A stretch of 64,000 bases of DNA, taken from assembly GCA_965223505.1 (NCBI GenBank), contig CBDCWP010000004.1:1-64000 (forward strand), given 5' to 3'. Positions within the stretch are counted from its first letter, which is position 1; every line of letters begins with the position of its first letter. The notes beneath the pieces are model-generated. The model saw only the letters and a list, made by a program, of their open reading frames with translations. It was not told the DNA's origin and searched no databases. Positions 44,415 through 60,060 of the stretch are shown one piece after another. The stretch comes from Planctomycetota bacterium. Its GTDB lineage: Bacteria; Planctomycetota; PLA2; JAEUHO01. The position numbers and the translations under genes are program-made.

Positions 44415-45847
44415 CAGTCCTGCCCTCCGACGGTGAGCTGCTTGACGAGCACGGACGGGATGCCCTGGCTCACCGGAACCCCCTGGCCGTCCTTGCCGCA
44501 GGTCCAGCCACCCGAGTCGAGCTTGGCGTCGTTCGCGGCCATGGTGATGTCGCGCAGGGCATCGGGGCCGTTGCCGATGATGTTCACGTTGGCGATGGGG
44601 GAGGTGATCTTGCCGTCCTCGATCAGCCAACCGTTCTTCACGAAGAAGGTGAAGTCGCCGGCGCCGATCTGCACCTGTCCGTTCGTGAACGTCTCGGCGA
44701 CGATGCCTCGGTCGACCGACGCGATGATCTCGTCGTAGCTGTGGGGCCCGTTCTCCATGAACGTGCAGCGCATGCGCGGCATGGGGACGTGACGGAAGCT
44801 CTCGCGGCGCCCGGAGCCGGTCGGCTCGATGCCGTATTGCTTGGCGCTGATGCGGTCGTGCATGTAGCTGCGCAGGACGCCGTCCTCGATGAGAACCGTG
44901 CGCTCGACCGCGTTGCCTTCGTCGTCGACGTTGATCGAGCCGCGCTCGTGTTCGAGCGTGCCGTCGTCGACCACGGTCACGAAGTCGGGCGCGACCTTCT
45001 GGTCCATCATGGTCGAGTAGATCGATACGTTCTTGCGGTTGAAGTCGGCTTCGAGCCCGTGGCCGATGGCTTCGTGCAGCAGGATGCCGGATGCGCCGGC
45101 GGCCAGCACGACGGGCATCTCACCCGCGGGCGGCTTGCGCGCGTCGAACAGGATCATCGTGCGCTTGACCGCGTCCTCGACCAGATCGCGCAGCCGCTCG
45201 TCGGTGAACCACTCGATGCCGTCGCGGCGAACCAGGCTGGCCATGCCGGTCTGGCGTTCGTCGTTCTTCGTCGCATTGACGACGCAGTGCAGGCCCGCCA
45301 TGGGGCGACGATCGGTGAAGATCGCGCCCTCGCTCGTGGCGATGAGCACGCGGTCGTCGCTGTCGAACCAACCCGTCGAGACCTTGTCGACGGCGGGCTC
45401 GAGCGCGCGTGCCAGCTCGTCGATCCGGCGCAACAGCGGCAGCTTCTCCTCGACCGCGACGTCTTCGACGTTGCGCTGGACGGCGTAGTAGTCCGGCAGG
45501 CTGCGCACCTCGATCGCCTGCGGGGCGACCTTGGCGTTGCCGGCGGCGATGGAGGCCGCGGTGCGCGCCGCGCGGCATAGCGCCTCGACGTCGAGGTCTT
45601 CGCTGTAGGCGTAGCCGGTTTGGTCGCCGATGACGACGCGGACGCCGGCGCCCTGGTCGACGCTCGAGGAGCCGCGGCTGACGATGCCGTCCTCCATGCC
45701 GATCGACGTCGAGTGTTGGTGCTGGAAGTAGACGTCGGCGAAGTCGGCGCCGCGCTCCATGGCGGCGGCGAGGACGCGGCGAAGGAGCGGTTCGTCGATG
45801 CCGAACCAGGTGGCGAACGGGTTGTCTGTCAGTGCGGCGGTCGTCAT
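44414..45847 (-). CDS. tldD: TldD metalloprotease
   Basis: GILLHEAIGHGLEADFNRK, DDEG, GSGRRES, PMPRM, CGKDGQGVPV. Confidence 0.96.
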   Translation of the reverse strand: MTTAALTDNPFATWFGIDEPLLRRVLAAAMERGADFADVYFQHQHSTSIGMEDGIVSRGSSSVDQGAGVRVVIGDQTGYAYSEDLDVEALCRAARTAASIAAGNAKVAPQAIEVRSLPDYYAVQRNVEDVAVEEKLPLLRRIDELARALEPAVDKVSTGWFDSDDRVLIATSEGAIFTDRRPMAGLHCVVNATKNDERQTGMASLVRRDGIEWFTDERLRDLVEDAVKRTMILFDARKPPAGEMPVVLAAGASGILLHEAIGHGLEADFNRKNVSIYSTMMDQKVAPDFVTVVDDGTLEHERGSINVDDEGNAVERTVLIEDGVLRSYMHDRISAKQYGIEPTGSGRRESFRHVPMPRMRCTFMENGPHSYDEIIASVDRGIVAETFTNGQVQIGAGDFTFFVKNGWLIEDGKITSPIANVNIIGNGPDALRDITMAANDAKLDSGGWTCGKDGQGVPVSQGIPSVLVKQLTVGGQD

Positions 45848-45916
45848 GGGGAGCAGAGTCTGACAGGGGCTGCGGAGGCTGCCGAACATTCCCGGAAGGC
45901 GCCGCGCCTGATCCCG

Positions 45917-47365
45917 TCAGGTTCGCGCGCCCTGCGGCAGCTCACGGACGTATCGTCGGTAGGTCGCCAGCCAGCGCTCGGGATGGCGCAAGGGATGCAC
46001 GTATTCGAGCAGCGCGCCCGGCAGGTCGAACGCCAGGCGGTCCGGAATCGCGTTCCACACACGACAGCGACCGAAGGTCAGTGTCGCCGACGACACCTCG
46101 CATCGGAGGAACGCGAGAAGATCGCGCGCCCAACACTCGAACACGGCGACGTAGTCGCTGACGGGATCGCCCGAGTCCACGGCGACGAACGTAGAGCGCT
46201 GCGGTTCGTACGCGTATACGAATGCGCCGTCGTCCTCCCCGTCGCGCAGCGCCAGGGCGAAGGTCGGGCGCGTCTGCGCGTCGTCCAGCGCCCCGAGCGA
46301 GTACAGGTCCTTGAAGAGGTCCCTTCCATACAGGTGCGCCGCCAACGAGCGCAGCTCGACGTCGAGGGCGTCGAGCTCCTCGTCCGAGAGCGACGCCTGC
46401 GAGGTCGCCGCGTCGTAGTCTTCGAGCCACTCGACGTCGCCGACGAACGTCCGCGCGGGCCACTCGTCCTCGGGCGAAGCGGACAGGAACGGTGTGCCGT
46501 GCGCCTGCTCGACCAACTCACCGTCTATCATCACATACGTGTCGCCGGGCCGAGGCCAACACACACGGTTCGCGGGCAGGAGCGGCTCGAGCGCGAGGGC
46601 GTGCGCGCGCCCGTCCGTCGTGAAGGCATTTCCGTTGAGCCAGGCCCGATCGCCCCCGAAGCAGAATCCGCCGCCGACGACGGCCCAGGCGGCCGGCATT
46701 CGGTGGTTCGCATCGAGCCACTCGCAGATCCCGATGGCGCTTTGCACGAACGTTGCGATCTCTTCCGGATGCGGTCCGCTCCAGCTCGTGAGGAAGTGCC
46801 ACTCGCTCCAGTTGTTGGTCTGCCCCCAGACTCCGACGCGGTCGACGCGGGCACGGACCCGCTCGAGCATGTCTTGCGTCGCCGGCATGTCCACGCTGGT
46901 GAAGAAGCTGCCGTGCCCGGCCAGGTCACGTACCAGATACGGCAGGACGTCCCACTCTTCGATGATGGCGTCGCGGCGCTGATCGGCGGACATCGGCAGG
47001 AACTCGAGGCCGCCGACCGTCACGCCCTCGTCCGGGTTCAGCAGACGGACGCCGAATCCCATCTCCGCCAGGATCGTCCGCATGGCGACAGAGGAGCGCG
47101 ACGACATGTAGATGGGCACCGAGCGGTCCAGGCAGTGGAGCGAGGCCAGGTCGAAGTGCCCTTCGTGTTCGTGCGTGAGCATGACCGCGTCGAGAGCCGG
47201 GAGCGCCGATACGTCGACGCGGCGGGGCGGAAACACGCGCAGGCCGACCGCGGGCGTCAGTCCGAACGCGTCGTGCAAGAGGGGATCGACGAGGATCCGC
47301 GCATCAGCGGCCTCGAACAGCCAGCCGTGGTGGCCGAGCGCGGTCATGCGAAAGGCGTCGTTCAT
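45917..47365 (-). CDS. MBL-fold metalloenzyme paralog 1 (putative peptide-modifying enzyme)
   Basis: LGHHGW, LVDPLL, THEHEGHFD, EEWD, C-terminal ECWARDLL/YVHPLR domain. Confidence 0.8.
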   Translation of the reverse strand: MNDAFRMTALGHHGWLFEAADARILVDPLLHDAFGLTPAVGLRVFPPRRVDVSALPALDAVMLTHEHEGHFDLASLHCLDRSVPIYMSSRSSVAMRTILAEMGFGVRLLNPDEGVTVGGLEFLPMSADQRRDAIIEEWDVLPYLVRDLAGHGSFFTSVDMPATQDMLERVRARVDRVGVWGQTNNWSEWHFLTSWSGPHPEEIATFVQSAIGICEWLDANHRMPAAWAVVGGGFCFGGDRAWLNGNAFTTDGRAHALALEPLLPANRVCWPRPGDTYVMIDGELVEQAHGTPFLSASPEDEWPARTFVGDVEWLEDYDAATSQASLSDEELDALDVELRSLAAHLYGRDLFKDLYSLGALDDAQTRPTFALALRDGEDDGAFVYAYEPQRSTFVAVDSGDPVSDYVAVFECWARDLLAFLRCEVSSATLTFGRCRVWNAIPDRLAFDLPGALLEYVHPLRHPERWLATYRRYVRELPQGART

Positions 47366-49494
47366 GGCATCCGGGCTCGCAGGGTGTGAATCTCACCGAA
47401 CACGGGCCTGAGATCCGGCGCCAATCCGAGCTGAAGCCGTCTCACCGCGCGCTCGAGGTGTGGCCCGCCGTCGGCGTCGAGCTCGGGCCACCGCAGACGC
47501 AGGGTGTTGATGCCCGATCGCACGGTCGTCGCCGGCGCCAGCACGGTCGCGCGGCTCCATTGCGCACCTGTGGTGATCCGGCCCACCTCCGTGCCGTTCA
47601 GCACGAGGGCCGACGTGCGATCGTCCTCGTCGTCGCGGGGGGCACGGAGCGTGAGCGCGAGCTCCACGGCGCGAGGCTCGACGACCAGAAAGTGGAACGT
47701 GGACTCCGGCGTCAGCGCGCGCTCGTAGGAACGCGACGTCGGATATGCGGCGAACGGCGACCCGCGGAAGTACCCGCGCGCGAGATCCTGCTCGCCGCGC
47801 TCGAGTCCGCGGGCGTCGGCCAGCAGCAGTTCGAGCCGCTCGCCGGCGCCCGGTCGCCGGCGCTCGAGGACGGCGATGACCGCGCGGACCACGGGCACGT
47901 CGAGCACGTCGTAGTCCTGCCAGCGCCAGATCCGCGCCGGCATACGGTACGGCGATTCGAACACGCGTTGCTGCGCCGACGAGAGCAGTGGGGGGGCGCA
48001 GGCCGCCTTTGCCGCGACGTAGTCCGCCAGCACCTCCTCGATGCCTTCCGAGCTGTCGAGTGCCTGCTCGATCCAGTACTCGGTGCCGGCGGCGCCGTCG
48101 GTCAGCGGACGCTGAATGTGGGCGGTGTGCAGCGCGGCCAACATCGCGCCGCGGGCCTCGACCGTGTCCGCCGGACTCGGCGGCGGCGATGCACTCGCGA
48201 CCGTTCGCCAGTCCAGCGCCTGGAAGCGAGCGGGATGGCTGACTGCCAACACCTCGGCCACGACCGCGGCCATCGCGACGTGCATGCCCTCGGGCGTCAG
48301 ATGACAATAGTCGAGGAACAACCTGCGACCGGGCAGCGGCGATGCGGCATGGTCTGCGAACACGGCCGGAAGGTCGACACACAACAGGTCGTGCGCTTGC
48401 GCCGCGTCACGGATCGCTTGCCGGACCACCGGACTCGCACCGGGCGCCGATGCGCGTCCGAGCCAGCGCGACGCCTCGAGTCCGGCGAGCAGCGCGTCGC
48501 GCGCCGCCTCCGTCCGACCGATGCGAAGCAGTGTCGTACCGAGTGCCTGATGGGACGTGGCGCACGTTCCGTCGTCCAGGGCAAGCATCGCGCGGGCGGC
48601 GTTCTCCGCTGCCGCGAGATCGTCGTTCGCCAGCGCGTCGAGAACCTCTTGCTTGTGCGCGAGCCAGCGGCGATTCCGGTCGCCCGGCAACCACGACGGC
48701 GGGAGATCGTGCTCCCAATCCGTCAGGTTCGTCTCCGGCACGACCAACGCCATCGTGACTCCGGAGCGGTCCGCGATCGCGGCGAGCTCGGCGCACACGG
48801 CCTCCGCCTTCGACTTCAGGTGGTTCGTTGCGAGGCGCTGAAGGCCAGCCGGCCCTTCGGCGTCCAGCGCCGCCGCGTGTTCGTGCAGGAGCTCGAGCGA
48901 GAGGACGTCGGCGAACGCGGGCGCGTCCGGCGCCGCGGCGAGCCAGTTGTTGCCGGCGAACACGACGATCACGTCCGGAAGCAGCTGCAACGCGGTCCGC
49001 GAGACCTCCAGGACGCCCTCGTCCGTCTGATCGACCCGGCACAGGTCGATGACCTCGAACAGGTCCGCGCCCGCCGTTGCGTCCAGCTGGCCCTGCAGCA
49101 CCTGCGCGGGCGTCAGATCCGGCGCGTACAAGAACCCCGCCGCCGTCGACTCGCCGACGAGGCAGACCCGAATCGGCAGGAACGCGTCTTTGGGTCGCAG
49201 CGTCTTGGTGAGCGCCCAGTCGTCCTCGAGCTCGAGAGGATCGGGGCGAACGAAGACCAGCTCGCCGTCGACCTCCTGGGGCTCCCAGATCCCGATGGCC
49301 TCCGGGCGGTCGGCGTCCGGATCGTCTTCGTCGGAGTACGGCTCGTCGAGCCCGGCCGGCTCGACGGCGCGCGGGACGCCGACCATGCCGGTCTGTTGCA
49401 GCAGACGCAGCGTGCGCAGTCCTTCCTCCGTTGCCAAGAGCTGCGCGAGCTCTTCGCAGGCGGCCAACGGAGGTTGTCGTCGGTCTCGGGACAT
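47362..49494 (-). CDS. SGNH/GDSL-type hydrolase with TPR-like helical insertion
   Basis: Block I VCLVGESTAAG, block III VFAGNN, block V FLDYCH. C-terminal part of ORF 47362..51036, ATG at 49494. Confidence 0.72.
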   Translation of the reverse strand: MSRDRRQPPLAACEELAQLLATEEGLRTLRLLQQTGMVGVPRAVEPAGLDEPYSDEDDPDADRPEAIGIWEPQEVDGELVFVRPDPLELEDDWALTKTLRPKDAFLPIRVCLVGESTAAGFLYAPDLTPAQVLQGQLDATAGADLFEVIDLCRVDQTDEGVLEVSRTALQLLPDVIVVFAGNNWLAAAPDAPAFADVLSLELLHEHAAALDAEGPAGLQRLATNHLKSKAEAVCAELAAIADRSGVTMALVVPETNLTDWEHDLPPSWLPGDRNRRWLAHKQEVLDALANDDLAAAENAARAMLALDDGTCATSHQALGTTLLRIGRTEAARDALLAGLEASRWLGRASAPGASPVVRQAIRDAAQAHDLLCVDLPAVFADHAASPLPGRRLFLDYCHLTPEGMHVAMAAVVAEVLAVSHPARFQALDWRTVASASPPPSPADTVEARGAMLAALHTAHIQRPLTDGAAGTEYWIEQALDSSEGIEEVLADYVAAKAACAPPLLSSAQQRVFESPYRMPARIWRWQDYDVLDVPVVRAVIAVLERRRPGAGERLELLLADARGLERGEQDLARGYFRGSPFAAYPTSRSYERALTPESTFHFLVVEPRAVELALTLRAPRDDEDDRTSALVLNGTEVGRITTGAQWSRATVLAPATTVRSGINTLRLRWPELDADGGPHLERAVRRLQLGLAPDLRPVFGEIHTLRARMP

Positions 49495-49502
49495 GTCGCT
49501 CG

Positions 49503-51266
49503 TCAAATGAAGGTGTAGACCGTCTCGCTGATTCGCCCGCGGCGGTCGGAAGCCCGTAGCCGGCGATGGTATTCCAGTGTGTGTGTCCACGACGAGGGCA
49601 GCATCTCCCGGTCGATGACGAAGTCCTCTAGGACCAGCGCGTCCAGGCGTGCGTCGACGGCGCACAGCAGGGCTTCGGCCGGCGTGCGCACGATCGGCTC
49701 GCCGCGGACGTTGAACGACGTGTTCACCAACACGGGGCAGCCCGTCAGTTCTTCGAACGCCGAAAGCAGCGCGGCGAACCTGGGCGCGACCGATGGATCC
49801 ACCGTCTGGGGGCGCGCCGATCCGTCGACGTGCGTGATCGCCGGCAGGTCGAGCTTCGAGTCGACCCGGCACGTCTCCAACATGAACGGAGACGGGTGAT
49901 CGAGCGCGAAGTGTTCGGCGGTGCGATCGGCGAGCACCGCCGGCGCGAACGGCCGGAACCCCTCCCGTTTCTTGATCCGCTCGTTCAGGCGGCTCTGCAT
50001 CTGCGGGTCGCGTGGGTCCGCGAGGATGCAGCGCGCGCCGAGCGCGCGGGGGCCGAACTCCATTCGGCCCTGGAACCAACCTACGACCTGTCCGGCCGCG
50101 AGTCGTCGCGCGACGTCGGCGACGAGCTGTCCTTCGTCGTGCCGGAACGCGGCTGCCTCGATCCCGACGCCCTCCAGCAGCCGCGCGACGTCGTCGCGCG
50201 CGAACGACGGACCGAGGCAGACGTCCTCCAGTCGCCGAGTGTCCGGTCGATGCCCCGTGAGTCGCACATGCGCCAGCGCGGCGGCGCCGAGCGCGCCGCC
50301 CGCATCGCCCGCGGCCGGCTGGACGAACACGTTGCCGAACGGGCCCTCCCGCGCGATGCGACCGTTTGCGACGCAGTTGAGCGCCACGCCGCCGGCCATG
50401 CAGAGGTTGTCCGAGGCGACGAGCCCGGCGAGACGGGAGACGGCGTCGAGCAGGATGTCTTCGAGCACGACCTGCAGACTGCGAGCGATGTCCTTGTGTC
50501 GTTGGCGCAGTGGCTCGTCGGGCCGTCGTGCCGGCCCGCCGAGCAGGTCGCAGAGCGCGTCGGTGTACATGCGATCTGCGCGACGAAATTCGAAGTACGA
50601 GAGGTCGAGCGCGTAGTGTCCGGCGCCGTCCGGCGTGCTCAGCGCGCGAATCGCATCGACGCAGGTCGGTCGCCCGTAGGGAGCGAGTCCCATCACCTTG
50701 TACTCGCCACTGTTGACAGCGAACCCGAGGTATCCGGTGATCGTGCTGTACAGCAGGCCCAGCGAGTGGGGGAAACGCACCTCGTCGAGCAACTCGATCT
50801 CGGCGCCCTGAGCGCGTCCGTAGGTCGTCGTCGCCCACTCGCCGACGCCGTCGACCGTCAGCACCGCCGCGTCGTCGAACCCGGAGAAGAAGTACGCGCT
50901 CGCCGCGTGCGACATGTGATGCTCGAAGGACTCGATCCGTCCCTCGTGGCCGAGGAGCTCGCGAATGTCCCGTTCCGGCCGTCCCGGGTCGATCCAGCGA
51001 AGATCCTGCGCTCCGCCGAGCGGACAGCCTGCCCAAATCTGTCTAGCCAGCTTGAGCGGCGGCGACTCGTAGTATGCGACACAGTCCACGTCGTCGATGT
51101 CGATCGCCCCCTCGTCCAGGCAGAATCGGAATGCATCCACGGGAAGCCGCCCGTCGTGCTTGATGCGCGAGAAGCGCTCCTGGGCGGCGGCGGCGACGAG
51201 CACGCCGTCCGAGATCAGGCAGCATGCGGACTCGTGGAAGTACATGGAGAGACCGATGATGTTCAC
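49503..51266 (-). CDS. O-carbamoyltransferase (NodU/CmcH/TobZ family)
   Basis: HESACC, QERFSRIKHD, HHMSHAAS, DGVGE, EYKVMGLAPYG, GGVALNC, FGPRALG, KKREGFRPFAP, HVDGSARPQ, NTSFN. Confidence 0.96.
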   Translation of the reverse strand: MNIIGLSMYFHESACCLISDGVLVAAAAQERFSRIKHDGRLPVDAFRFCLDEGAIDIDDVDCVAYYESPPLKLARQIWAGCPLGGAQDLRWIDPGRPERDIRELLGHEGRIESFEHHMSHAASAYFFSGFDDAAVLTVDGVGEWATTTYGRAQGAEIELLDEVRFPHSLGLLYSTITGYLGFAVNSGEYKVMGLAPYGRPTCVDAIRALSTPDGAGHYALDLSYFEFRRADRMYTDALCDLLGGPARRPDEPLRQRHKDIARSLQVVLEDILLDAVSRLAGLVASDNLCMAGGVALNCVANGRIAREGPFGNVFVQPAAGDAGGALGAAALAHVRLTGHRPDTRRLEDVCLGPSFARDDVARLLEGVGIEAAAFRHDEGQLVADVARRLAAGQVVGWFQGRMEFGPRALGARCILADPRDPQMQSRLNERIKKREGFRPFAPAVLADRTAEHFALDHPSPFMLETCRVDSKLDLPAITHVDGSARPQTVDPSVAPRFAALLSAFEELTGCPVLVNTSFNVRGEPIVRTPAEALLCAVDARLDALVLEDFVIDREMLPSSWTHTLEYHRRLRASDRRGRISETVYTFI

Positions 51267-52723
51267 GCCGACCTCCGCGGGCCGGGCAGACGCGGCCCGT
51301 CGTCGTGAAGCGCGGCGACGATCGAACGATAGCGCTCGCGATACGCATCCGGACGACGCAACGGATGCACGTACTCGAACAGCGGCTTGTTGAACTCGAA
51401 CGCGAAGGCACGGGGATTCGCATTCCACATGCGCGAGCGTCCGAAGCAGAGCGCCGTCGTCGACATCCGGCAGGTCAACATGGCCAGGAGGTCCGTCGCC
51501 CAGCACTCGTAGACGGCGAGGAACTCCTTCGGCGGATCGGGTGACGCGACGCGCACGAACGAGCAATGCTCCGGTCGGTAGGCGAAGGCGAGCGGCTGCT
51601 CGCCGTCACGAAGCGACAAGGCGAAGGTCGGGATCCGTCCCGCCGCGTCCGGCACGGACAGGCCGCAGATGGCGCGGTGAAGCGAACCACCGTGCAGGCT
51701 GCGCGCCAGCCCGGCCAACGCAGCTTCGAGCGCCGGGACGTGCGAACGCTCCAGCACCTCGCGACCGGAGGCCGGGCGGTAGTCCTCCAACCAAGCGACG
51801 TCGCCGCGATGCTCCCGCGCCGGCCACGCGGCCCTCGGCGCGACGCGCACGAACGGCGAGCTCGGTCGGACCTCGGCGACCTCGCCGTTCTTCAGAATCA
51901 ACGTTTCACCGGGGACCGACGGGCGAACCGTGACGCCCGGGAGCTGCAGCGCCAGCGCGCGCGCGGCCTCGTCGTTGGTCCAGGGGAAGACCTCGTGATT
52001 GAGGAACGCTTGCTCCCCCCGGAAGCAGAAGCTCTCGCCGGTGACCAGCAGCTGCTCGGGCGCGGTCCACTCATGCGCCATCGCGGTGTGGTAGTCGACG
52101 ATCGATCCCACGAAGCTGGACAGGCTGAAACGGTCCGGACGCGCCCACCGGGCCTGGAAGTGCCAGTCCGTGTTGTTGTTGGTGTACACCCAGAGCCCCG
52201 GTCGCTCGACGAAGGAGCGTGCGCTGCGCCACATCGAAGGCGTCGGCGCCATGTCGATGTGCGTGAAGAGGTTGCCGTGTCCGTCGCGATCGCGAACCAC
52301 GAACGGCAGCACGTCCCACTCCTCGACGATGCCGTTCTCCACCTGGTCCGCGGTCATCGGAAGCACGCTCAGATCCGCGCCGATCTCGACGGGACGTCCC
52401 GGTCTCGTGAGCCGAACGGAGAAGCCCATGTCGGTCAGAATCTCGCGCATCGCCGGGGACGAGCGGGACGGCATCAAGATCGGCGTGCTGCGATCCACCA
52501 TGTCGATCGACGCGAGGTCGAAGTGGTCCTCGTGCTCGTGCGTGAGCAGCACGGCGTCAAGAGGCGGCGCAGCATCGAAGTCGAATCGCCGCGGCGGATG
52601 TACGGCGAGTCCTACGGCTTCGGTCGCGGCGAACGTGTCGCGCAGCAACGGGTCGACGAGCAGGGTGGAGGATGCCGTCGACACGACCCATCCGTTGTGT
52701 CCGACGTGGGTGACGGAAAACAT
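51263..52723 (-). CDS. MBL-fold metalloenzyme paralog 2
   Basis: VGHNGW, LVDPLL, THEHEDHFD (HxHxDH), EEWD, ECWATDLL, YVHPLR. Confidence 0.82.
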   Translation of the reverse strand: MFSVTHVGHNGWVVSTASSTLLVDPLLRDTFAATEAVGLAVHPPRRFDFDAAPPLDAVLLTHEHEDHFDLASIDMVDRSTPILMPSRSSPAMREILTDMGFSVRLTRPGRPVEIGADLSVLPMTADQVENGIVEEWDVLPFVVRDRDGHGNLFTHIDMAPTPSMWRSARSFVERPGLWVYTNNNTDWHFQARWARPDRFSLSSFVGSIVDYHTAMAHEWTAPEQLLVTGESFCFRGEQAFLNHEVFPWTNDEAARALALQLPGVTVRPSVPGETLILKNGEVAEVRPSSPFVRVAPRAAWPAREHRGDVAWLEDYRPASGREVLERSHVPALEAALAGLARSLHGGSLHRAICGLSVPDAAGRIPTFALSLRDGEQPLAFAYRPEHCSFVRVASPDPPKEFLAVYECWATDLLAMLTCRMSTTALCFGRSRMWNANPRAFAFEFNKPLFEYVHPLRRPDAYRERYRSIVAALHDDGPRLPGPRRSA

Positions 52724-52727
52724 GACG

Positions 52728-53933
52728 TCAAAGCGCCTTCCGATAGCGCTCGGCGAAACGCTCGGGGAACCGATGCGGGTGGATGTGTGCTTCCAAGGCG
52801 CTCGCGAGCTCGAATGTGAACCGTGGATGCGCGACGGAGGTGCTCTGCGAGCCGGTCCGCGTCAGCGTCTCCGGCAGGATCTCGGCACGCAACGTCATCA
52901 ACAAGTCCGTTGCCCAGCACTCGAAAACGGCGACGTAGTCGTCGATCGTTCGACTGTCGTGAAGCAGCCGGAACGCGCATGCGTGCGGCGCGTACTCGAA
53001 CACGTGCCCTTCGCGATCCGTACTTCGCAAGAAGAGTGCAACCGTTGGACGCTTGCCCGGATGCTCCTGGGGCGAGAGCGAGTAGAGCTCGCGAAACAAA
53101 CGCTTGCCGTACAGGTGTCTTGCCAATGTGTTCAGCTCAGCGCGAAGCTCCGCGATCTCTCCGTCCGAGAGCGCGCCGCGTCCGCACAGCGGACCGTTCT
53201 CCAGCGTGTCTTCGATGGGTTCCCGGGCGTCCACATAGGCGTCATCGCTCTCGTGTTCGACGACCGTTCCACGGCGGACGCCGAAGCGCTGCCCCGGAGC
53301 CCACGCGCGCACGTCGTCTTGCGGCAGGAGCTGCGCGAGAACGCCGGCTTGTGCCTGCGCGCCCGTCGCCGGTCCATCGGCGATCAACAGGCCCGCCGGG
53401 CGTGCCCACTGCCGGCTCATGCGCCGGTGCGCCCCGGCCAGCGCCAGGATGCCTTCATGCGCCGGCGCCGGGTACACCACCAACCCGGGGACGTCGAGTG
53501 CGGCGCTCGCCGCCGCGCACTCCACGGATGAGGGCGCTCCGTCGATCGGCATGAAGAGACTGCCCTCCGCGTCGGCGTCGCGAACGACGCACCCGAGCGC
53601 ACCCCACGCTCGGCCGGCGTCGGCGATGTCCGCCACCGTGTCGACGCGCAGCGTTCCGATGTCCAGCGTCTCTCCACCGTGCACACGCTGCGTCGCGAAG
53701 CCCAGCTCCTCGATGACGACGACCATTGCGGTGGACGCATGCGCGGACACGTAGATCGGGACGCTGCGATCCAGCCCCGCGAGCGACGTAGGATCGAACG
53801 CTCGTTCGCGTGGCAGAAACACGGCGTCAGGCGCGTGTCCGCGGTCCACTCGGAACGCGTCACCGATGATCAGGTGCCCGCGACGCCCGCGCACCGACCA
53901 GGTGCGACTGCCCAGGTACGTGGCCGTGAACAT
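52728..53933 (-). CDS. MBL-fold paralog 3, metal ligands lost (pseudo-enzyme or scaffold)
   Basis: Homologous to paralogs 1 and 2 (LDRSVPIY, LARHLYG, VFECWATDLL, HPHRFPERF), but the HxHxDH position reads PRERAFD. Confidence 0.75.
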   Translation of the reverse strand: MFTATYLGSRTWSVRGRRGHLIIGDAFRVDRGHAPDAVFLPRERAFDPTSLAGLDRSVPIYVSAHASTAMVVVIEELGFATQRVHGGETLDIGTLRVDTVADIADAGRAWGALGCVVRDADAEGSLFMPIDGAPSSVECAAASAALDVPGLVVYPAPAHEGILALAGAHRRMSRQWARPAGLLIADGPATGAQAQAGVLAQLLPQDDVRAWAPGQRFGVRRGTVVEHESDDAYVDAREPIEDTLENGPLCGRGALSDGEIAELRAELNTLARHLYGKRLFRELYSLSPQEHPGKRPTVALFLRSTDREGHVFEYAPHACAFRLLHDSRTIDDYVAVFECWATDLLMTLRAEILPETLTRTGSQSTSVAHPRFTFELASALEAHIHPHRFPERFAERYRKAL

Positions 53934-53963
53934 CGACGCCCCGTCCTTGCCGGCAAGACCTTG

Positions 53964-54206
53964 CTAGGAGGAGACGTTGTCGTTGGTGTTGCCGTTGTTG
54001 AGTCGGTTCTGCACGGCCCACAACGCGTTGACGGCAGGTGTGTTCTTCTGACCGATGGCCCAGAGGGCGTTCAGGGCCGTGTTGGTGCCCCCGATGGCGT
54101 TGCTGGCGCTGGGGTGTCGCATCCCCCCGCGCATCTCCCGCAACTCTTTCTTGGGGATCGTCCGGGTCTTGCCCGTCAACTGGACGCGCCGTGCTCGCTT
54201 CTTCAT
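53964..54206 (-). CDS. RiPP/bacteriocin precursor A with double-glycine leader (80 aa)
   Basis: Leader ends IPKKELREMRGG. The 52-aa core has two NALWA repeats and 11 Asn. GAGAGG RBS. Confidence 0.85.
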   Translation of the reverse strand: MKKRARRVQLTGKTRTIPKKELREMRGGMRHPSASNAIGGTNTALNALWAIGQKNTPAVNALWAVQNRLNNGNTNDNVSS

Positions 54207-54402
54207 GGCAACCTCTCAGGTTATCGACCCCTGCGCATCGTAGCACTTCTGCGCGGCGCCATGCAAGGCCACCAGCGCATGGCGACCCCCGCCATATGTT
54301 CACGATTATCGACATCGGCTGTACGGCGCAGATACAAGCCGTATCGACGCCGAATCCGTCCCGCCGGCCACTCGCGGGCCGACGGGACGGTGGTTTGCGC
54401 TT

Positions 54403-54608
54403 CTAGAAAACCTGGTTCGCGAAATGCACCGCGTCCTGCACGCCGTTGCTTGCGGGGTTGATGAAGACGGAGTAGATGTCGCCTTCGGAGGCGGGAAGAG
54501 GGCGCTCGGCCAACCCGAAGTAACCACGGCAACGCCGGCGGCGTTGTCACTGAGGCCCCCGCGGGTCAAACGCATGTCCTTCTTGGAAAGCTGCTTCGTG
54601 AAGTCCAT
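54403..54608 (-). CDS. RiPP/bacteriocin precursor B with double-glycine leader, apparently frameshifted (predicted 68 aa)
   Basis: Leader MDFTKQLSKKDMRLTRGG. GC3-rich codons switch frame near 54493-54495 and end at TAG 54403-54405. The uncorrected ORF runs to 54306. Confidence 0.65.
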
Positions 54609-54763
54609 CCTCGTCAAGTGGTTTCAACCAGCCGAGCGGGATGCTCGACCGGGGGTGGGAGTCTAGCAGGCCACCGTTGAAGCCCTTTGCGGCGAAGCGT
54701 CCGAATCGAAGACCAAGACGACGTTCACTCTGCGCGACACTCTCCGTTCACTCAGCGCGGCCG

Positions 54764-57055
54764 TCACTTGTTCCTCGGCGGCGTGTTCGCGCGGACCGCT
54801 TCGATGAGGACGTCGCCGGTGGTCTGCAGGCTCGCCCGCGATACCCGCTCCACGCGGTCCTCCGACGTGTGTCGGAATCGATTGCGACCGGCGCGTCGAA
54901 CGGGATCGGCGCCGCCGAAGTCGAAGTCGCACAGCAACGCCGCCGGGATGCCGGCGCGAAGAAACGGGATGTGGTCGTTGCGCACGGCGATCGGAATGCT
55001 GTGGGCGCGCGCTATCTCGAAGTAGCGTCCGTAGCCCAACCGTGCTCCGGCGTCGAGCAGCGATGCCGCCACCGACGTCGTGGAGCGTAGATCGTCGGTG
55101 AACTGCAGTCGCTCGTCGCCGACCATGTCGCAGACGACGACCGCGATCAGCCGGTCGACCTCGCCGGCGGCGACGACGTGCTCGACGAATGCGCGGCTGC
55201 CGTACAAGCCGTGGCGCGGACCCGAACGCCCCAGCGCCTCCTTGCCGTCGAAGAACGCGATCCGCACCGCCGGACGGGGCTTCATGGCCGCCAGGACACG
55301 CGCGCACTCGATCAGGACGGCGGCGCCAGAAGCGCCTTCGTTCGCGCCGGTGAAACCCGACACCCCCTCCAGCCGCTTCGTGTCGAGGTGCGTCGCGAGA
55401 AGAACGTATCGTTCGTCACGCTCGCCTGGCAACGAGGCGAGCGTGTTCTTCAGGACCCGTCCCCCGCCCGGCGTTTGCACTGCGACGTCCTCGATCTCCA
55501 CTGACCAACCCGCGGCCTCGAGCTGCGCGCGCACGTACCCGCGTGCGTTCTCCAGGGCCTCGCTGCCGAGGGGACGCGGACCCAGCTCGGCCAGGGCGAC
55601 GAGGTCCGCCATCGAACGATCGGCGTCGAACGGCGTTCGCGCAGCGGGCGCCGGTCGCGGCGAGAGCGGCGGCGGCGCTTCGGTCGGCGTCGTCGGCGTC
55701 ACCGCGGCGCCTCCGCTCAGGCCGAACAGGCGACGCACCGGTTCGAAGAGCAAGCTGACGATCCGCGGTCGCTCGGTCACGATCTCCGCGGAGAGCGTCA
55801 GCCCTGCGCGCAGTGCAAGCCCCTCCGGTGCGTCGCCTTGCACACGCTGTACGGCGAGGCGTCCGGTGAACACCGACGCGCCCGTCGTAGGGTCCTCCGT
55901 CGGTACCAGCGCGACACTCTCCAACCGTGCCTTCACGACGCCGAAGCGCTCGAACGGATACGCGTCGAGCTTGATCTTGCAGAGCGCGCCGGGTCGCAGA
56001 GCCGCGGCGTCGCGATTGGCGAACGTCGCGGTCGCCGCCACGTGGGGGGACGTGGAGATCGAAAATGCAGGCGTGTCCGCCTCGACCCGGTCGCCCGGAA
56101 CGATCGGCGCCGCGAAGTTGATCAACCCGCTCACCGGCGCATGCAGGACCAGCAGCTCGAGCACGCGCTCGCTCGCGTCGATCTCCGCCTCGAGCTTCTC
56201 GATGTCCGCGCGCGCCGTGTCGCGGGTGGCCCGCGTACGCGCGGCCGCGTCGCGCAGCGCGGCCTGCGCGGATTCCAGTCGGCTCTTCGCGGCGGCGACG
56301 CGTTCGTCGGCTTCGATGGTGATCACGTCGAGCGCCTGACGCGCCTCGCGCAACGCCGCTTTCGCACCCTCGACGAGTCCGCGCTGCGCGTCACGCTTGG
56401 CGATCGCCGCGTCGTGCGTCTCGCCGTCGATCAGCTTCTTCTTGTACAACGTCGTCGCGCGCTCGGCCGCCTTGTCGTCCCTACGAAGGGTGGCTTCGGC
56501 GGCGGTCAGCGCCGCCTGCTTGGCCTCGAGGCGTGCGCGCTCGAGCTCCACCCGGCGCGGAATGACCGTCTCGCGATGACGCAGCTCTCGCGTGTGCGCG
56601 TCGCGCGCTGCGCGCCAGTCTTCGATCGTCTCGGCGGCGGCGACGTCGGCGACGGCCTTCGCTTCGCCCGACGCCAGGAGGGCCGCCAGCGCGGTGACGG
56701 TCTCGTCGAGGGTCGTCCACTGCCGGTGCGCGCGACCGTGGTCCTTGCGCAGCCGCTCCAGACGCCCGCGTTCGGCTGCGTCTTCCAACCGCAGGAGCAG
56801 CTGTCCGGCTCGCACCTGCTCGCCTTCGGCCGCGTAGACCTCCGCGACGACGCCGGCGGTCGAGAGCCGTACGTCCGTGCGCTCGTCCACGGCGACGAGC
56901 AGCCCGCGGCCGACGACGACCCGATCGACGCGCACGACCGTCACGAACGTTCCGACCGCGCCCAGCAGGAGGAGCAACAGCCACAACAGCAGCCGACGCC
57001 CGCGCGCGCCGACCGCGGGCTTGGCGGGACGGGGCAGGATGGCGCCGCCGCTCAT
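54764..57055 (-). CDS. HlyD-family secretion adaptor fused to a C-terminal M28 (glutaminyl-cyclase-like) domain
   Basis: TM anchor, EGEQVRAGQLLLRL, coiled coil, LHAPVSG, LDAYPFERFG; Pro-rich linker; then THLDTK, GANEGASG, FFDGKE, GSR, DMVGD, NDHIPF, HTSED. Confidence 0.85.
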   Translation of the reverse strand: MSGGAILPRPAKPAVGARGRRLLLWLLLLLLGAVGTFVTVVRVDRVVVGRGLLVAVDERTDVRLSTAGVVAEVYAAEGEQVRAGQLLLRLEDAAERGRLERLRKDHGRAHRQWTTLDETVTALAALLASGEAKAVADVAAAETIEDWRAARDAHTRELRHRETVIPRRVELERARLEAKQAALTAAEATLRRDDKAAERATTLYKKKLIDGETHDAAIAKRDAQRGLVEGAKAALREARQALDVITIEADERVAAAKSRLESAQAALRDAAARTRATRDTARADIEKLEAEIDASERVLELLVLHAPVSGLINFAAPIVPGDRVEADTPAFSISTSPHVAATATFANRDAAALRPGALCKIKLDAYPFERFGVVKARLESVALVPTEDPTTGASVFTGRLAVQRVQGDAPEGLALRAGLTLSAEIVTERPRIVSLLFEPVRRLFGLSGGAAVTPTTPTEAPPPLSPRPAPAARTPFDADRSMADLVALAELGPRPLGSEALENARGYVRAQLEAAGWSVEIEDVAVQTPGGGRVLKNTLASLPGERDERYVLLATHLDTKRLEGVSGFTGANEGASGAAVLIECARVLAAMKPRPAVRIAFFDGKEALGRSGPRHGLYGSRAFVEHVVAAGEVDRLIAVVVCDMVGDERLQFTDDLRSTTSVAASLLDAGARLGYGRYFEIARAHSIPIAVRNDHIPFLRAGIPAALLCDFDFGGADPVRRAGRNRFRHTSEDRVERVSRASLQTTGDVLIEAVRANTPPRNK

Positions 57056-60000
57056 CCCACCTGCTCCGCGTGGAACATGGCATACAAGCCGCCTTGCTCG
57101 AGGAGGGCGGCGTGGGTGCCTTGCTCGGCGACGCGGCCCCGTTCGAGCACCACGATGCGATCCGCCCGCCGCGCGTACCCGAGGCGGTGCGCGAGGAACA
57201 CCACGGTGCGGTCGCGGCTGGTCTCGTCCAACGCGTTCAAGAGCGCGGCCTCGCTTTCCATGTCGAGCGAGCTCGTCGGCTCGTCGAGCAGCAGGAGTCT
57301 CGGCTGCCCCACGAGCGCGCGCGCGATCGCGAGACGTTGGAGCTCACCGCCGGAGAACCGTGCCGTGCTCCGCTCGCCGACGAGCGTACCGTAACCCTGC
57401 GGGCGATTGATGATCTGGTCGTGGATCCCCGCAGCCTGCGCAGCGGCGATGATGTCCGCTGCTGCGAGCTCGCGGCCGACCGCGATGTTCTCCATGATCG
57501 TTCCGGAAAGCAGCTCGATCTTCTGCGGAACGAATCCGACCTGGCGGCGCAGCGATCGCGCCGAGACGTTGCGCAGGTCGTGACGATCGACGTAGACCGA
57601 ACCCTTCTCGGGTTGAAAGAGCTTCAGCAGCAGATGAACGAATGTGGTCTTGCCCGCGCCGCTGCGTCCGACGATCGCGACGCGTTCGCCGGGCAGGACC
57701 TCGAGCGAGAGATCTTCGAAGACCGGCGGTAGGTCCCGTTCGTAGCGAAACGTGACATTCTCCAGGCGAATGTGGCCTTCCACGGAGCCGATGTCGAGCA
57801 ACGACTCCGTCTGCGGTTCCTCCGGCGAAGCGTCGAACACCTGGCTGAGCCGCTCGAGCGAGACCGCCGTCTCCTGAAAGCTCTCCCAGATCCCCAGCAA
57901 GCGCGTCGCGGGCGCGAGCACCTGGGCTAGCACGGCCGAGAAAGCGACGTACGCACCGACGCTGAGCGAACCGTCGATCACGAACCGTGCGCCGAAGTAG
58001 ATGACCGCGGCTTGGCCGCACGCGCCAATGAACGTGCCGAGCGTCTGCGACAACGTCACGAGGCGCACCCCGCGCAGCTCCGAGGCGAGCATCCGGTGGA
58101 AGAGACGCTCGTATCGGCGCCGTTCCGCATGTTCCGCGTTCGCGCCCTTGACCGTGACGACCGACGAGAGCGAGTCGACGAGGGCGGACTGGGTCTCGCC
58201 CTGGCGGGTCACCTGCTCTCGGCGGATGCGACGCAGGCGCGGTGTGATGAACCACGTGAGCAGTGCCAACAGCGGAATCGGAAACAGTCCGATGATTGCG
58301 AGCTCGACGTCGTAGCACAGGAGCACGATCAGGTACACGGCCCCCAACGCGACGTCCAGGATGGCGCCCGTCGCGACGGTCGTGAGGAAGTGACGGACCT
58401 TCTCGTTGTCCGCGAACCGCACGAGCAGGTCGCCGACCTTGCGCGACGCGAAGAACTGCAGCGGCAGGCGAAAGAGCTTGTGGTGGAAATCGCTCACCAG
58501 CGCCAGGTCGGCCGCACGCACGACGTCGTAGAGCAGCAGCGTGCGCAGCGCGCCGATCAGCGCGGAGAAGAGCGCGGCGCCGATCATCGCGGCCAACAAC
58601 GCGATCAGGATCGACACCTCGCCGTGGACGAACACCCGATCGATGACGGTCTGTGTCGTGAAGGGGATGACGAGACCAAGCAGCTGCAATGTGAAGGCGG
58701 CCAGCAGCACCTGGAAGATGACGCCGCGGTGGGGCCGCAGGTAGGGCAGAAAGCGCGAGAGCCCCTTCGGTCGTCCGCCCGCGTCTTCGGGCGGCGCGGA
58801 GGTGGGCCGCAACAACAGCAAGGTGCCGTCCCACCCTTCCATGAACGCCTTGAGCGGTATGCGCTTGAGCCCCTGCATCGGGTCTGCCACGACGACACGT
58901 CGTCGCGAGACGGCGTACAAGACGACGAAATGATTGCCGCCGACGTGCGCGATGGCGGGCAGCCGCACGTTGCGCAGGTCGTCCGCCCCTTCGACGCCGA
59001 CGCCGCGGGCGAGGAAGCCGATGTCCTCGGCGGCTTCGGCCAGCGACAGGAGGGAACAGCCTTGCTGCGAGACGCACGCGAGCTCGCGCAGCCGCCCGTG
59101 CAACGCCGGCCGTCCGTAGAAGTCCGCGATCATGCCCAGGCAGGCCGGACCGCAGTCGGTCGCGTCCGGTTGGAGCCGCAAGGGGTACCTGTGCAACGCC
59201 CGTCGCAGTGCGCGTCCGACGAGCGTGCCCGGCGGTTCCAGCAGACGGGGATCGAGCGCCTCTTCGAGCTCCTCCTCGACGGTTTCATGCGACGCGCTGC
59301 GTGTCGGCGTGCGGCGTCCGCGGTGCGACAGGGCGGCCACGAGGGTCGCGAAGAACGGCCGCAGGGCCCGCGCCTCTTCGTCGGACGCGGCAAGCACGAG
59401 CCGCCGCCCCGGCGACAGCGCCACGATGTCGGCCGGCTCCGGCGTGTCGAGCGCCATGCCGGCTTCGCCGAAGGTGTCGCCGCTCACCAGCATGCGCGGC
59501 GAGTCGTGCGCGTCCCCGGCCTCGCGGCGAGCGCGTCCTTCGACAAGGAGCGAGAAGCCGTCGGCGCGCTCGCCCTGGCGGGCCAACACGTCGCCGGCGG
59601 CGAACGCCTGGGGTGCGAGCGCGAGGACGACGTTGCGGACGATCTCGGCGTCGACGGACGTCGCGTCGAGATCGTCCAAGAAGGCACGCAGCGCCGGCTC
59701 CCCGAGCGCGGCCGTCAACGGTCGAAGCGACGGGTCGTTGTCGAGCACGCTTCGATCGAGGCGCAACACGGTCATCGCCGTCTCGACGTGCACGGCATCG
59801 CCGCCCGGCGCCTCGCCGAAGAGCTGTCCCCGGAACGCGACGCCGCCTTGTCCGACGGGCGCGTCGCCGCCCTCGGATCTCCCCATCCCGTCGAGCACGA
59901 GTAGGGCGCCCTTGGACGGCGGGATCACGGCGCCGCGTTTGAAGCGTGCGCGCTCGCCGTGCGCCGCGAGTTCCGTGCAGGCGTTGCGTCCGAGCACCCG

Positions 60001-60060
60001 CAGCACGGCGTCGGCGAGTAGCAACCGGGCTGTTCGCCGGAGTTCGGGGTCGTCCTGCAC
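57052..60060 (-). CDS. Peptidase-containing ABC transporter (cNMP-like + C39 + TMD + NBD)
   Basis: C39 QPDATDCGPACL...HFVV...DP; Walker A GRSGAGKT, FSGGELQR, LLLDE, AHR. N-terminal cNMP-like motifs (RQGERADGF, GDTFGE). Confidence 0.93.
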   Translation of the reverse strand: MQDDPELRRTARLLLADAVLRVLGRNACTELAAHGERARFKRGAVIPPSKGALLVLDGMGRSEGGDAPVGQGGVAFRGQLFGEAPGGDAVHVETAMTVLRLDRSVLDNDPSLRPLTAALGEPALRAFLDDLDATSVDAEIVRNVVLALAPQAFAAGDVLARQGERADGFSLLVEGRARREAGDAHDSPRMLVSGDTFGEAGMALDTPEPADIVALSPGRRLVLAASDEEARALRPFFATLVAALSHRGRRTPTRSASHETVEEELEEALDPRLLEPPGTLVGRALRRALHRYPLRLQPDATDCGPACLGMIADFYGRPALHGRLRELACVSQQGCSLLSLAEAAEDIGFLARGVGVEGADDLRNVRLPAIAHVGGNHFVVLYAVSRRRVVVADPMQGLKRIPLKAFMEGWDGTLLLLRPTSAPPEDAGGRPKGLSRFLPYLRPHRGVIFQVLLAAFTLQLLGLVIPFTTQTVIDRVFVHGEVSILIALLAAMIGAALFSALIGALRTLLLYDVVRAADLALVSDFHHKLFRLPLQFFASRKVGDLLVRFADNEKVRHFLTTVATGAILDVALGAVYLIVLLCYDVELAIIGLFPIPLLALLTWFITPRLRRIRREQVTRQGETQSALVDSLSSVVTVKGANAEHAERRRYERLFHRMLASELRGVRLVTLSQTLGTFIGACGQAAVIYFGARFVIDGSLSVGAYVAFSAVLAQVLAPATRLLGIWESFQETAVSLERLSQVFDASPEEPQTESLLDIGSVEGHIRLENVTFRYERDLPPVFEDLSLEVLPGERVAIVGRSGAGKTTFVHLLLKLFQPEKGSVYVDRHDLRNVSARSLRRQVGFVPQKIELLSGTIMENIAVGRELAAADIIAAAQAAGIHDQIINRPQGYGTLVGERSTARFSGGELQRLAIARALVGQPRLLLLDEPTSSLDMESEAALLNALDETSRDRTVVFLAHRLGYARRADRIVVLERGRVAEQGTHAALLEQGGLYAMFHAEQVG

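Follow-up and report, generated by a model that had tools for sequence, protein, structure and literature searches.

The window analysed here is a stretch of 64,000 nucleotides from a Planctomycetota bacterium (assembly GCA_965223505.1, contig CBDCWP010000004.1, positions 1 to 64,000), with a G+C content of about 69% throughout. Its minus strand carries nine co-oriented genes, from 60060 down to 45917, which probably direct the synthesis of a secreted peptide that is made by the ribosome and modified after translation (a RiPP). The original prediction, made from the sequence alone, had proposed a new RiPP class at this locus, and its gene order, overlaps, gaps and start and stop coordinates were confirmed at every junction. 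The nine genes, all on the minus strand, are the following.

57052..60060, minus strand: peptidase-containing ABC transporter (PCAT) with a cyclic-nucleotide-binding-like N-terminus, a C39 peptidase, an ABC membrane domain and an ATPase (Pfam)
54764..57055, minus strand: HlyD-type periplasmic adaptor with a C-terminal M28 metallopeptidase at about 54797-55447 (Pfam)
54306..54617, minus strand: precursor B candidate, preB (open reading frame with a GG-ended leader)
53964..54206, minus strand: precursor A, preA (open reading frame with a GG-ended leader, ribosome-binding site and third-position G+C content, GC3)
52728..53933, minus strand: degenerate paralog, 401 aa, of the metallo-beta-lactamase (MBL)-fold proteins with an SCP2-like domain (MBL-SCP2) (alignment to the paralogs; silent in Pfam)
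51263..52723, minus strand: MBL-SCP2 paralog 2 (MBL2), 486 aa, HEHEDH (Pfam Lactamase_B_2/B_3)
49503..51266, minus strand: NodU/CmcH/TobZ-type carbamoyltransferase (CarbT), with a GTG start overlapping the MBL2 stop (Pfam)
47362..49494, minus strand: SGNH/GDSL-like protein, 710 aa, with large C-terminal extensions (weak Pfam match)
45917..47365, minus strand: MBL-SCP2 paralog 3 (MBL3), 482 aa, HEHEGH (Pfam Lactamase_B_2/B_3)

The genes are tightly packed. Overlaps of 4 nt were found at 47362-65 (ATGA), 51263-66 (GTGA) and 57052-55 (ATGA), so that the CarbT-SGNH pair is joined to MBL genes on both sides, and the gaps between the preA and MBL3 genes measure 4, 8 and 30 nt, the last being the spacing from preA to the first MBL gene. 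Wider gaps separate the HlyD gene from preB (146 nt) and preB from preA (99 nt). A promoter scan returned 0 sigma-70-like sites inside the operon, and no terminator-like sites were located between its genes, all 3 such sites falling inside genes and being fewer than in shuffled sequences. The 30-nt gap that follows the preA stop holds a perfect 12-nt palindrome, CTTGCCGGCAAG (53946-53957), which could act as a small hairpin or binding site setting the precursor-to-enzyme ratio.

Pfam searches bore out the domains predicted for the PCAT, the HlyD-M28 protein, two of the MBL proteins and CarbT; the SGNH match fell below the cut-off, and its blocks were recognised by eye. In the PCAT, Peptidase_C39 (PF03412, 1.4e-28, about 58798-59187) was found together with ABC_membrane (PF00664) and ABC_tran (PF00005), and the translation shows the DCGPACL cysteine motif, that is, the C39 peptidase with its Cys and the ABC exporter that define a PCAT. 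The top NCBIfam rows were HlyB and NHLP exporters, both under their cut-offs. Residues 1-290 of this protein (57052-60060) precede the C39 peptidase and include at least one cyclic-nucleotide-binding domain, by which export might be gated. The next gene, overlapping that of the PCAT through the ATGA, encodes HlyD_3/HlyD_D23 adaptor domains and a Peptidase_M28 domain (2.8e-27). The operon thus holds a C39-ABC transporter and an HlyD adaptor for leader removal and export, and leader-plus-core precursors in preA and preB. As had been claimed, no known class-defining RiPP enzyme appears to be encoded in it: LanB/C/M, YcaO, radical SAM, ATP-grasp and P450 domains were all absent from the operon by Pfam, and none of the window proteins matched the PqqD models of Pfam or NCBIfam.

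The two small genes differ in quality. preA encodes a 28-residue leader (54123-54206), with VQLTGK at residues 8-13 and an end in MRGG, and a core of 52 residues (53967-54122) with two NALWA repeats and no Cys; it has a GAGAGG ribosome-binding site and a GC3 of 0.90. The preB leader ends in RGG and its core places a Trp amid small residues (TSGWPS), and its third-position G+C signal shifts frame after about codon 30-40, the other frame ending at a TAG (54403-54405). A genuine frameshift, decay of the gene or noise could each account for this shift (54403-54560). An assembly error is not evident, because the contigs of another sample from the same study are identical to the window over 54447-54662, at a weak depth of about 5-7 and with 54170-54440 uncovered there. 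Of the two double-Gly precursors that had been proposed, then, both have GG-ended leaders and preA is further backed by its ribosome-binding site and GC3, whereas the coding signal of preB decays.

All three MBL paralogs belong to one rare family, in which an MBL-fold domain is followed by a C-terminal SCP2-like domain (about 52740-53210 in the degenerate paralog, 51299-51772 in MBL2 and 45950-46420 in MBL3). The degenerate paralog aligns with MBL2 and MBL3 at 31-32% identity, has no Pfam match and lacks the HxHxDH motif. A word-indexed search returned 50 family clusters at 90% identity, all named 'hypothetical'. Among 1.84 billion proteins, 268 representatives of 50%-identity clusters matched a profile of the C-domain at E<=1e-3, and 129 of these at <=1e-30. 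In nearly all of these 268 the domain is C-terminal in a protein of 440-500 aa, and shorter members appear fragmentary. NCBIfam holds no model for the family and Pfam generic MBL models alone, and the C-domain searched by itself gave nothing but three stray rows in Pfam at E<=10 and none in NCBIfam. The nearest ESM Atlas clusters are named 'MBL fold metallo-hydrolase', one of them with an SCP2_Rv3818 domain. A literature search of limited reach found no account of the family, of an MBL-fold or SCP2-type RiPP enzyme or of an SCP2-type leader binder; the Lactamase_B_2 genes noted in some MNIO clusters are unrelated to the MBL-SCP2 family. With neither a curated model nor a report in that limited search, the earlier statement that no described RiPP family is built on this gene set still holds.

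The architecture was supported by structural models. MBL2, modelled in AlphaFold2 from 47 sequences (pLDDT 95.5), shows an MBL fold over residues 1-300, and its HxHxDH motif and Z scores of up to 19.4 against solved MBL folds place it in the MBL-fold superfamily, with RNase J, NAPE-PLD, SaxA, UlaG, CmlA and FrsH all at Z 17.5-19.4. The diiron hydroxylase CmlA was nominally first in Foldseek (6.6e-10). In a profile search of the PDB, NAPE-PLD came first (1.3e-9), followed by FrsH (1.2e-7) and CmlA (1.1e-6), the alignments to these three spanning the first 77-121 residues and ending before the later ligands. The C-terminal 160 residues, modelled alone (pLDDT 92.5), resembled AeSCP-2 (Z 8.6, rmsd 3.5 A over 104 residues) and many further SCP2 entries, as well as the SCP2-like C-domain of the alkylsulfatase YjcS (Z 6.0); Foldseek listed SCP2-L3 (2.3e-4) plus SdsA1/Pisa1 rows.

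Residues conserved across the family are H62-E-H64-(E/D)-(D/G)-H67, D126-(H/Q)127, E135-W-D137, D157 and N183 in the MBL domain, and Y382, E406-C407-W408, D411, H453 and R456 in the C-domain. Second-site ligands are variable, the motif Asp being D or G and the motif-5 His being replaced by Asn. Both MBL2 and MBL3 have Gln at position 127, where most members have His, and in MBL3 a Gly replaces the motif Asp. The degenerate paralog reads RERA instead of HEHExH and retains D157 alone of the metal-motif residues, together with all of the C-domain residues (Y382, E406, C407, W408, D411, H453 and R456). Because the metal motif is lost while the C-domain residues are kept, we infer that it may serve as a non-catalytic leader-binding partner.

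Relatives of the family were collected to examine their neighbourhoods. Contigs of GTDB, at one genome per species, yielded 45 loci, 39 of them true relatives; metagenomes yielded 78 mostly short loci with 23 good matches, of which 10 were long enough for neighbours to be seen and 13 short ones were dropped. The neighbour survey thus comprised 49 loci (39 from GTDB and 10 from metagenomes, given L numbers below). Genes were called with a position-specific GC model that reproduced the window operon, neighbours within 6.5 kb were scanned against Pfam, and 52 family members were placed in a quick IQ-TREE phylogeny (LG+G4).

We found that 10 loci carry a same-strand small open reading frame (ORF) ending <=160 nt upstream of the MBL gene (L001, L003, L007, L036, L047, L048, L049, L051, L052 and L063). 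Each of them encodes a leader that is basic and terminates in GG or (R/K)AG, followed by a short core in which Trp or Tyr is present: THTDNW in L001, L048 and L051, TPSWGS in L007, PRWV in L047 and Tyr-rich cores in L049 and L052, with GG-type leaders in L003, L036 and L063. The cores of L047 and L007 are very short (4-6 residues). Such an ORF was also found in L004, one gene away and adjoining a C39-PCAT, and in L008, between LanC and the MBL gene. LanB and/or LanC adjoin the MBL gene in L008, L020, L038, L061 and L063, with some stop/start overlaps, LanB being a neighbour in both L008 and L020; the order is unknown-MBL-LanC-PCAT-LanB in L038, with overlapping junctions, and unknown-MBL-LanC-PCAT-LanB-LanB-MBL on the L063/L061 contig. 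Alignment of 14 candidate precursors revealed a basic N-terminus, a hydrophobic-Thr-(Pro/Gly)-Lys segment and then GG or (R/K)AG; the small ORFs of L001, L048 and L051 are 56-67% identical, with T11, P12, RAG and W invariant. The sole feature common to the cores is an aromatic residue, mostly Trp; Asn, the target first proposed, is not the likely one.

A RiPP hallmark, meaning a precursor ORF or LanB/LanC/PCAT, was present in 15 of the 28 loci lying outside one 21-row clade of the tree and in 0 of the 21 inside it (15/49 overall). In the tree the three window paralogs cluster with two loci that have upstream precursors, L003 and L047. Since relatives pair with leader-bearing small ORFs or sit in LanBC/PCAT operons, the MBL-SCP2 paralogs are supported as the best candidates for the class-defining enzyme, a reading drawn from sequence comparison.

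How an MBL-SCP2 enzyme might meet its precursor was modelled by co-folding the L001 enzyme (40-row alignment) with its 46-residue upstream ORF (4-row alignment). The median ipSAE was 0.82 (runs of 0.83, 0.79 and 0.82), and the best of 3 controls gave 0.00. Of 157 solved complexes 116 attain this mark, as do 2 of 215 mismatched pairs, a calibration that is rough because of the custom alignments. The runs agreed in at least 50% of contacts, with a partner pLDDT of 50-58. Leader residues 3-23 lie against a pair of strands in the SCP2-like domain (enzyme residues 363-375 and 385-394); the predicted error is lowest for leader residues 8-12, and core residues 38 and 41, which flank Asn-Trp, come near the invariant D153 and N179 of the MBL site. 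The preA segment VQLTGK (residues 8-13) matches the place of VIVTPK in L001, the segment of lowest error. These models support the view that the precursor leader may be bound through the SCP2-like domain.

The carbamoyltransferase and its SGNH-like neighbour have a history of their own. CarbT carries both diagnostic domains, Carbam_trans_N (1.3e-70, 239 bits against a cut-off of 24) and Carbam_trans_C (1.7e-67, 226.7 bits against a cut-off of 27); the NodU model of NCBIfam matched at 6.8e-47, under its equivalog cut-off. The SGNH-like protein reached 26.2 bits with Lipase_GDSL_2, below the cut-off of 32.9; GES, GNN and DxxH (DYCH) blocks can be recognised by eye in its translation, and most of its homologues carry PF13472. 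Its family comprises at least 361 clusters that share its length, most of them belonging to Thermoanaerobaculia or other Acidobacteriota, and ESM Atlas relatives combine GDSL with TPR domains. Among 121 genomes sampled from Thermoanaerobaculia the protein was found in four, and in all four a same-strand CarbT 52-59% identical to that of the window was present, directly upstream in 3 and 8 kb away in 1. It was absent from 40 relatives of the window genome and from three Thermoanaerobaculia genomes reached through loci, and it showed no similarity to the GDSL-like neighbour of the carbamoyltransferase in beta-proteobacterial loci. CarbT-SGNH is an independent two-gene module that has been joined here to the precursor/MBL-SCP2 system. 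The idea of a recurring MBL-plus-carbamoyltransferase cassette was therefore abandoned, because the pair occurs alone in Acidobacteriota. In one acidobacterial locus (L137:6021-11848) genes on the same strand flank the pair, one for an M28 peptidase upstream and an MbtH-like one downstream, a context in which the module may serve peptide metabolism there too.

Taken together, we consider it probable, from sequence and models, that the operon makes a secreted RiPP and that the MBL-SCP2 proteins are its peptide-modifying enzymes. The product probably represents a new RiPP type. Bolder and distinctly tentative, being in our view more doubtful than not, is the proposal of a whole new class in which an SCP2-like leader-recognition element and an atypical MBL site oxidise or rewire Trp or Tyr of a short core, with carbamoylation to follow and a secreted product. 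Equally tentative is the form which that class would take in the window: two catalytic paralogs, a metal-less leader-binding paralog and a captured CarbT-SGNH module. In the mechanism proposed for the probable reading, the leader would join the SCP2-like domain as an extra beta-strand, by way of its h-x-h-T-(P/G)-K segment near residues 8-13 (h, hydrophobic), and the domain would position the short core over the MBL metal site, where an aromatic residue, Trp in both preA and preB, or the neighbouring backbone would be modified. O2-dependent oxidation or hydroxylation is our favoured guess for that step, with hydrolysis or cyclisation as alternatives. MBL2 and MBL3 may act on different sites or steps, and the metal-less paralog may serve as a non-catalytic leader-binding partner. 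The recruited CarbT-SGNH module would then decorate the peptide by carbamoylation of a hydroxyl or amino group, the C39-ABC exporter would cut after the GG of the leader and export the product with the HlyD adaptor, and the M28 domain on the adaptor might trim the new N-terminus.

Several observations weigh against an assignment to peptide modification. The 21-row clade (SH-aLRT 100), which draws together beta-proteobacteria, Kofleriaceae/Haliangiales and Acidobacteriota, yielded no precursor-like ORFs, and its members often adjoin wax-ester synthase/diacylglycerol acyltransferase (WS/DGAT) and carboxylesterase genes, and also acyl-CoA dehydrogenase and glycosyltransferase genes; because this clade is without precursors, activity on peptides need not extend to the entire family. 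Co-occurrence with GG-leader ORFs and PCATs had been set beforehand as the test of the original prediction, and its outcome is thus split between the 15 of 28 loci where it holds and the precursor-less clade (21 of 49), several members of which sit beside lipid or glycan genes. The complete nine-gene set was found nowhere else among the GTDB loci, the metagenome loci and the 40 relatives, and the three paralogs, CarbT and the SGNH-like protein occurred together in none of these; a 16806-base contig with three family members (P0006, P0009 and P0021) lies outside the neighbourhood survey. The 24 same-family genomes hold no MBL-family relative beyond a weak N-terminal match, and preA returned itself alone from a collection of 5.8 billion proteins. 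The reading frame and C-terminus of preB are doubtful. The fold of MBL2 ties oxygenases with hydrolases and does not discriminate between them, which reduces the hydroxylation first proposed to one option among several, and MBL2 and MBL3 have an atypical metal site that could be inactive. SCP2 folds are normally lipid binders, and the alkylsulfatases SdsA1/YjcS have this same architecture of an MBL domain plus an SCP2-like C-domain. The predicted leader binding comes from the L001 pair rather than from window proteins, and from custom alignments. Finally, no MBL-SCP2, PCAT or leader peptide was found near the four CarbT-SGNH loci of Thermoanaerobaculia, and the module may have a non-peptide substrate here, because the pair is free-standing without precursors elsewhere.

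Part of this evidence would be accommodated by two unrelated modules on one transcript, an alternative that we regard as unlikely: bacteriocin export (PCAT, HlyD and two unmodified GG-leader peptides) beside a set for envelope lipids, alkyl sulfates or glycans. The three MBL-SCP2 proteins, CarbT and the SGNH hydrolase would then work on the envelope, the SCP2-like domain binding a hydrophobic tail, a division of labour that we likewise judge to have a small chance. The SCP2-like C-domain, with alkylsulfatase C-domains among its matches, NAPE-PLD as the best PDB sequence match (1.3e-9), the neighbours of the 21-row clade (WS/DGAT, carboxylesterase, acyl-CoA dehydrogenase and glycosyltransferases) and CarbT and SGNH standing alone in Acidobacteriota all speak for such a division. 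It sits poorly with the spacing of 30 nt between preA and the first MBL gene, with the position of the window paralogs in the tree, among the 28 loci of which 15 have precursors or LanBC/PCAT, with the leader motif present in preA and with a co-fold that puts the precursor on the SCP2-like domain while the controls stay at 0.00.

Alternatively, the MBL-SCP2 proteins might be peptide hydrolases (a leader or follower peptidase, or an enzyme of self-protection or turnover) that cut near the aromatic residue and leave a fragment that is unoxidised and perhaps carbamoylated. Hydrolases make up the majority of characterised MBL-fold enzymes and of the entries in the fold lists; some cores have just 4-6 residues (L047 and L007), and the minimal loci have no other peptidase or exporter nearby. 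We nevertheless regard this as quite unlikely, given that C39, M28 and TldD/E already supply proteolysis in the window, that the canonical second-site ligands are not conserved, which would be unusual for dinuclear Zn hydrolases, and that three paralogs, one of them inactive, suit stepwise modification better. That the small ORFs are regulatory leader peptides or chance neighbours of a cluster making a non-ribosomal small molecule is highly improbable: preA is a singleton and in L137 an MbtH-like gene comes after the CarbT-SGNH pair, but neither the operon nor the rest of the window holds a non-ribosomal peptide synthetase, polyketide synthase or other scaffold-forming gene, the leaders have cleavage sites of the PCAT type at their ends and a PCAT is present, and the cores are conserved across loci.

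Several further genes accompany the family. In five Kofleriaceae/Haliangiales metagenome-assembled genomes (MAGs) of the precursor-less clade (L016, L018, L022, L030 and L035) the MBL-SCP2 gene adjoins WS/DGAT plus carboxylesterase, and this subfamily may have a lipid-related role. Six beta-proteobacterial loci of the same clade have a carbamoyltransferase-SxtJ-GDSL region and glycosyltransferases nearby, not in one operon with the MBL gene. A second unannotated family (445-496 aa, without Pfam match, 42-70% mutual identity) adjoins MBL-SCP2 in four loci (L038:7991-9481, L063:8027-9454, L036:12304-13641 and L056:9589-9888) and is not present in the window. A third (408-425 aa, 36% identical) adjoins it in two RiPP-like loci (L004:11461-12687 and L038:6439-7716), the L004 member having a weakly PqqD/RRE-like C-terminus (E about 1e-3). 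In a Burkholderiaceae MAG (L009:5919-7424) a tryptophan halogenase gene lies about 560 nt upstream of the MBL-SCP2 gene, a context that fits Trp-centred chemistry; a 2-oxoglutarate (2OG) oxygenase, an S8 autotransporter, a CarbT and a GDSL-like gene are also near, and no precursor was found there. On L047, a metagenome contig whose MBL-SCP2 protein is among the closest relatives of the window paralogs, the genes for the 28-aa precursor and MBL-SCP2 come after one for a JmjC-type (cupin) hydroxylase (767-2227).

Comparison with described systems gave partial likenesses. Carbamoyltransferases are rare in RiPP pathways, the precedents being CgnI of crocagin (PMC10070186) and StdF (PMC13174530). 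Crocagin from Chondromyces crocatus (CgnA-E, CgnI and CgnL) has an Ile-Tyr-Trp core with beta-carbon hydroxylations, the NodU-type CgnI, a 2OG dioxygenase (CgnC) and a homologous pair of aminopeptidase-derived peptide binders, CgnB and CgnE, of which CgnE seems non-catalytic (PMC10070186). The window shares with it an aromatic core, a carbamoyltransferase and putative paired binders, the degenerate paralog resembling the role proposed for CgnE; unlike crocagin, it has no 2OG oxygenase domain in the operon and has MBL-SCP2 fusions and PCAT/HlyD export. Membership in the crocagin family was rejected on the lack of a 2OG oxygenase and because the lone M28-like domain is fused to HlyD, CgnB/E being set apart by description. 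By the account of PMC13174530, crocagin was the sole well-characterised RiPP carbamoylation before StdF, which makes homocitrulline from Lys. StdF resembles the window enzyme as a NodU-like carbamoyltransferase acting on a RiPP, the second case after crocagin, but it N-carbamoylates Lys and is fused to a peptidase (PMC13174530), whereas CarbT of the window is paired with the SGNH-like protein.

Class I lanthipeptide operons include MBL-SCP2 relatives (L038, L061/L063, L008 and L020) and precursors with leaders in the style of preA. The window operon differs in having neither Lant_dehydr nor LANC_like domains and a preA core without Cys, and with no LanB/LanC in it the window operon was not assigned to this class. 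The type III alkylsulfatases (SdsA1, Pisa1 and YjcS) likewise combine an MBL domain with a C-terminal SCP2-like domain, but sequence likeness is confined to the generic MBL core and the MBL-SCP2 family pairs with leader peptides; neither the whole proteins nor the C-domain matched an alkylsulfatase model in Pfam, and that assignment was not retained either. With the diiron beta-hydroxylases CmlA and FrsH the family shares an MBL-fold domain of the same subfamily, judged by fold and N-terminal profile. Those enzymes differ in acting on amino acids bound to carriers of non-ribosomal peptide synthetases and in their extra N-terminal domain, and many hydrolases score equally well. PqqB is an MBL-fold hydroxylase acting on a Tyr-derived ring. 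The pyrroloquinoline quinone pathway (PqqA with PqqB) offers a likeness, being RiPP-derived and using an MBL-fold protein on an aromatic residue of the precursor; the window differs in lacking PqqC, PqqD and PqqE, and PqqB has no SCP2-like domain and is not among the listed fold matches.

Four genes beside the operon had not been included in the first listing of the cluster.

60153..61502/61586, minus strand: sigma-54-dependent response regulator, directly upstream of the PCAT (Pfam)
61504..62298, minus strand: histidine kinase, upstream of the nine genes (Pfam)
44414..45889, minus strand: TldD, co-oriented, 27 nt downstream of MBL3 (Pfam, NCBIfam)
43077..44414, minus strand: TldE/PmbA, with a 1-nt overlap with TldD (Pfam, NCBIfam)

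It is possible that the response regulator and kinase regulate the cluster. TldD-TldE pairs 63-70% identical to this one are present in 3 same-family relatives without the cluster, and the two may be only neighbours rather than members. The remaining window encodes housekeeping functions (ribosomal proteins, EF-Ts, DnaB, BamA, LpxA/C, Rho and RecG), among them a 440-aa fusion of LpxC with a FabA/FabZ-like dehydratase (33011-34333) within a BamA-OmpH-LpxC/FabZ-LpxA block. Apart from the 24 same-family genomes, the other 16 of the 40 relatives include 2 with weak N-terminal matches to the MBL family and nothing more. The nine-gene block is an accessory insertion, because the 40 relatives lack the SGNH-like protein and nearly all of them lack the MBL family.

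Should the favoured reading hold, CarbT would be a third carbamoyltransferase of a RiPP pathway, PMC13174530 counting two, and the target of the CarbT-SGNH pair in Acidobacteriota would become a question in its own right. The minimal pairs of a 28-72 aa precursor and one enzyme (L001, L007, L047, L048, L049, L051 and L052) make the chemistry directly testable. The MBL-SCP2 proteins would constitute a new enzyme family and bring a new kind of leader-binding domain to RiPP biosynthesis, both of which would be missed by mining tools keyed to known class enzymes or to PqqD-like recognition elements.

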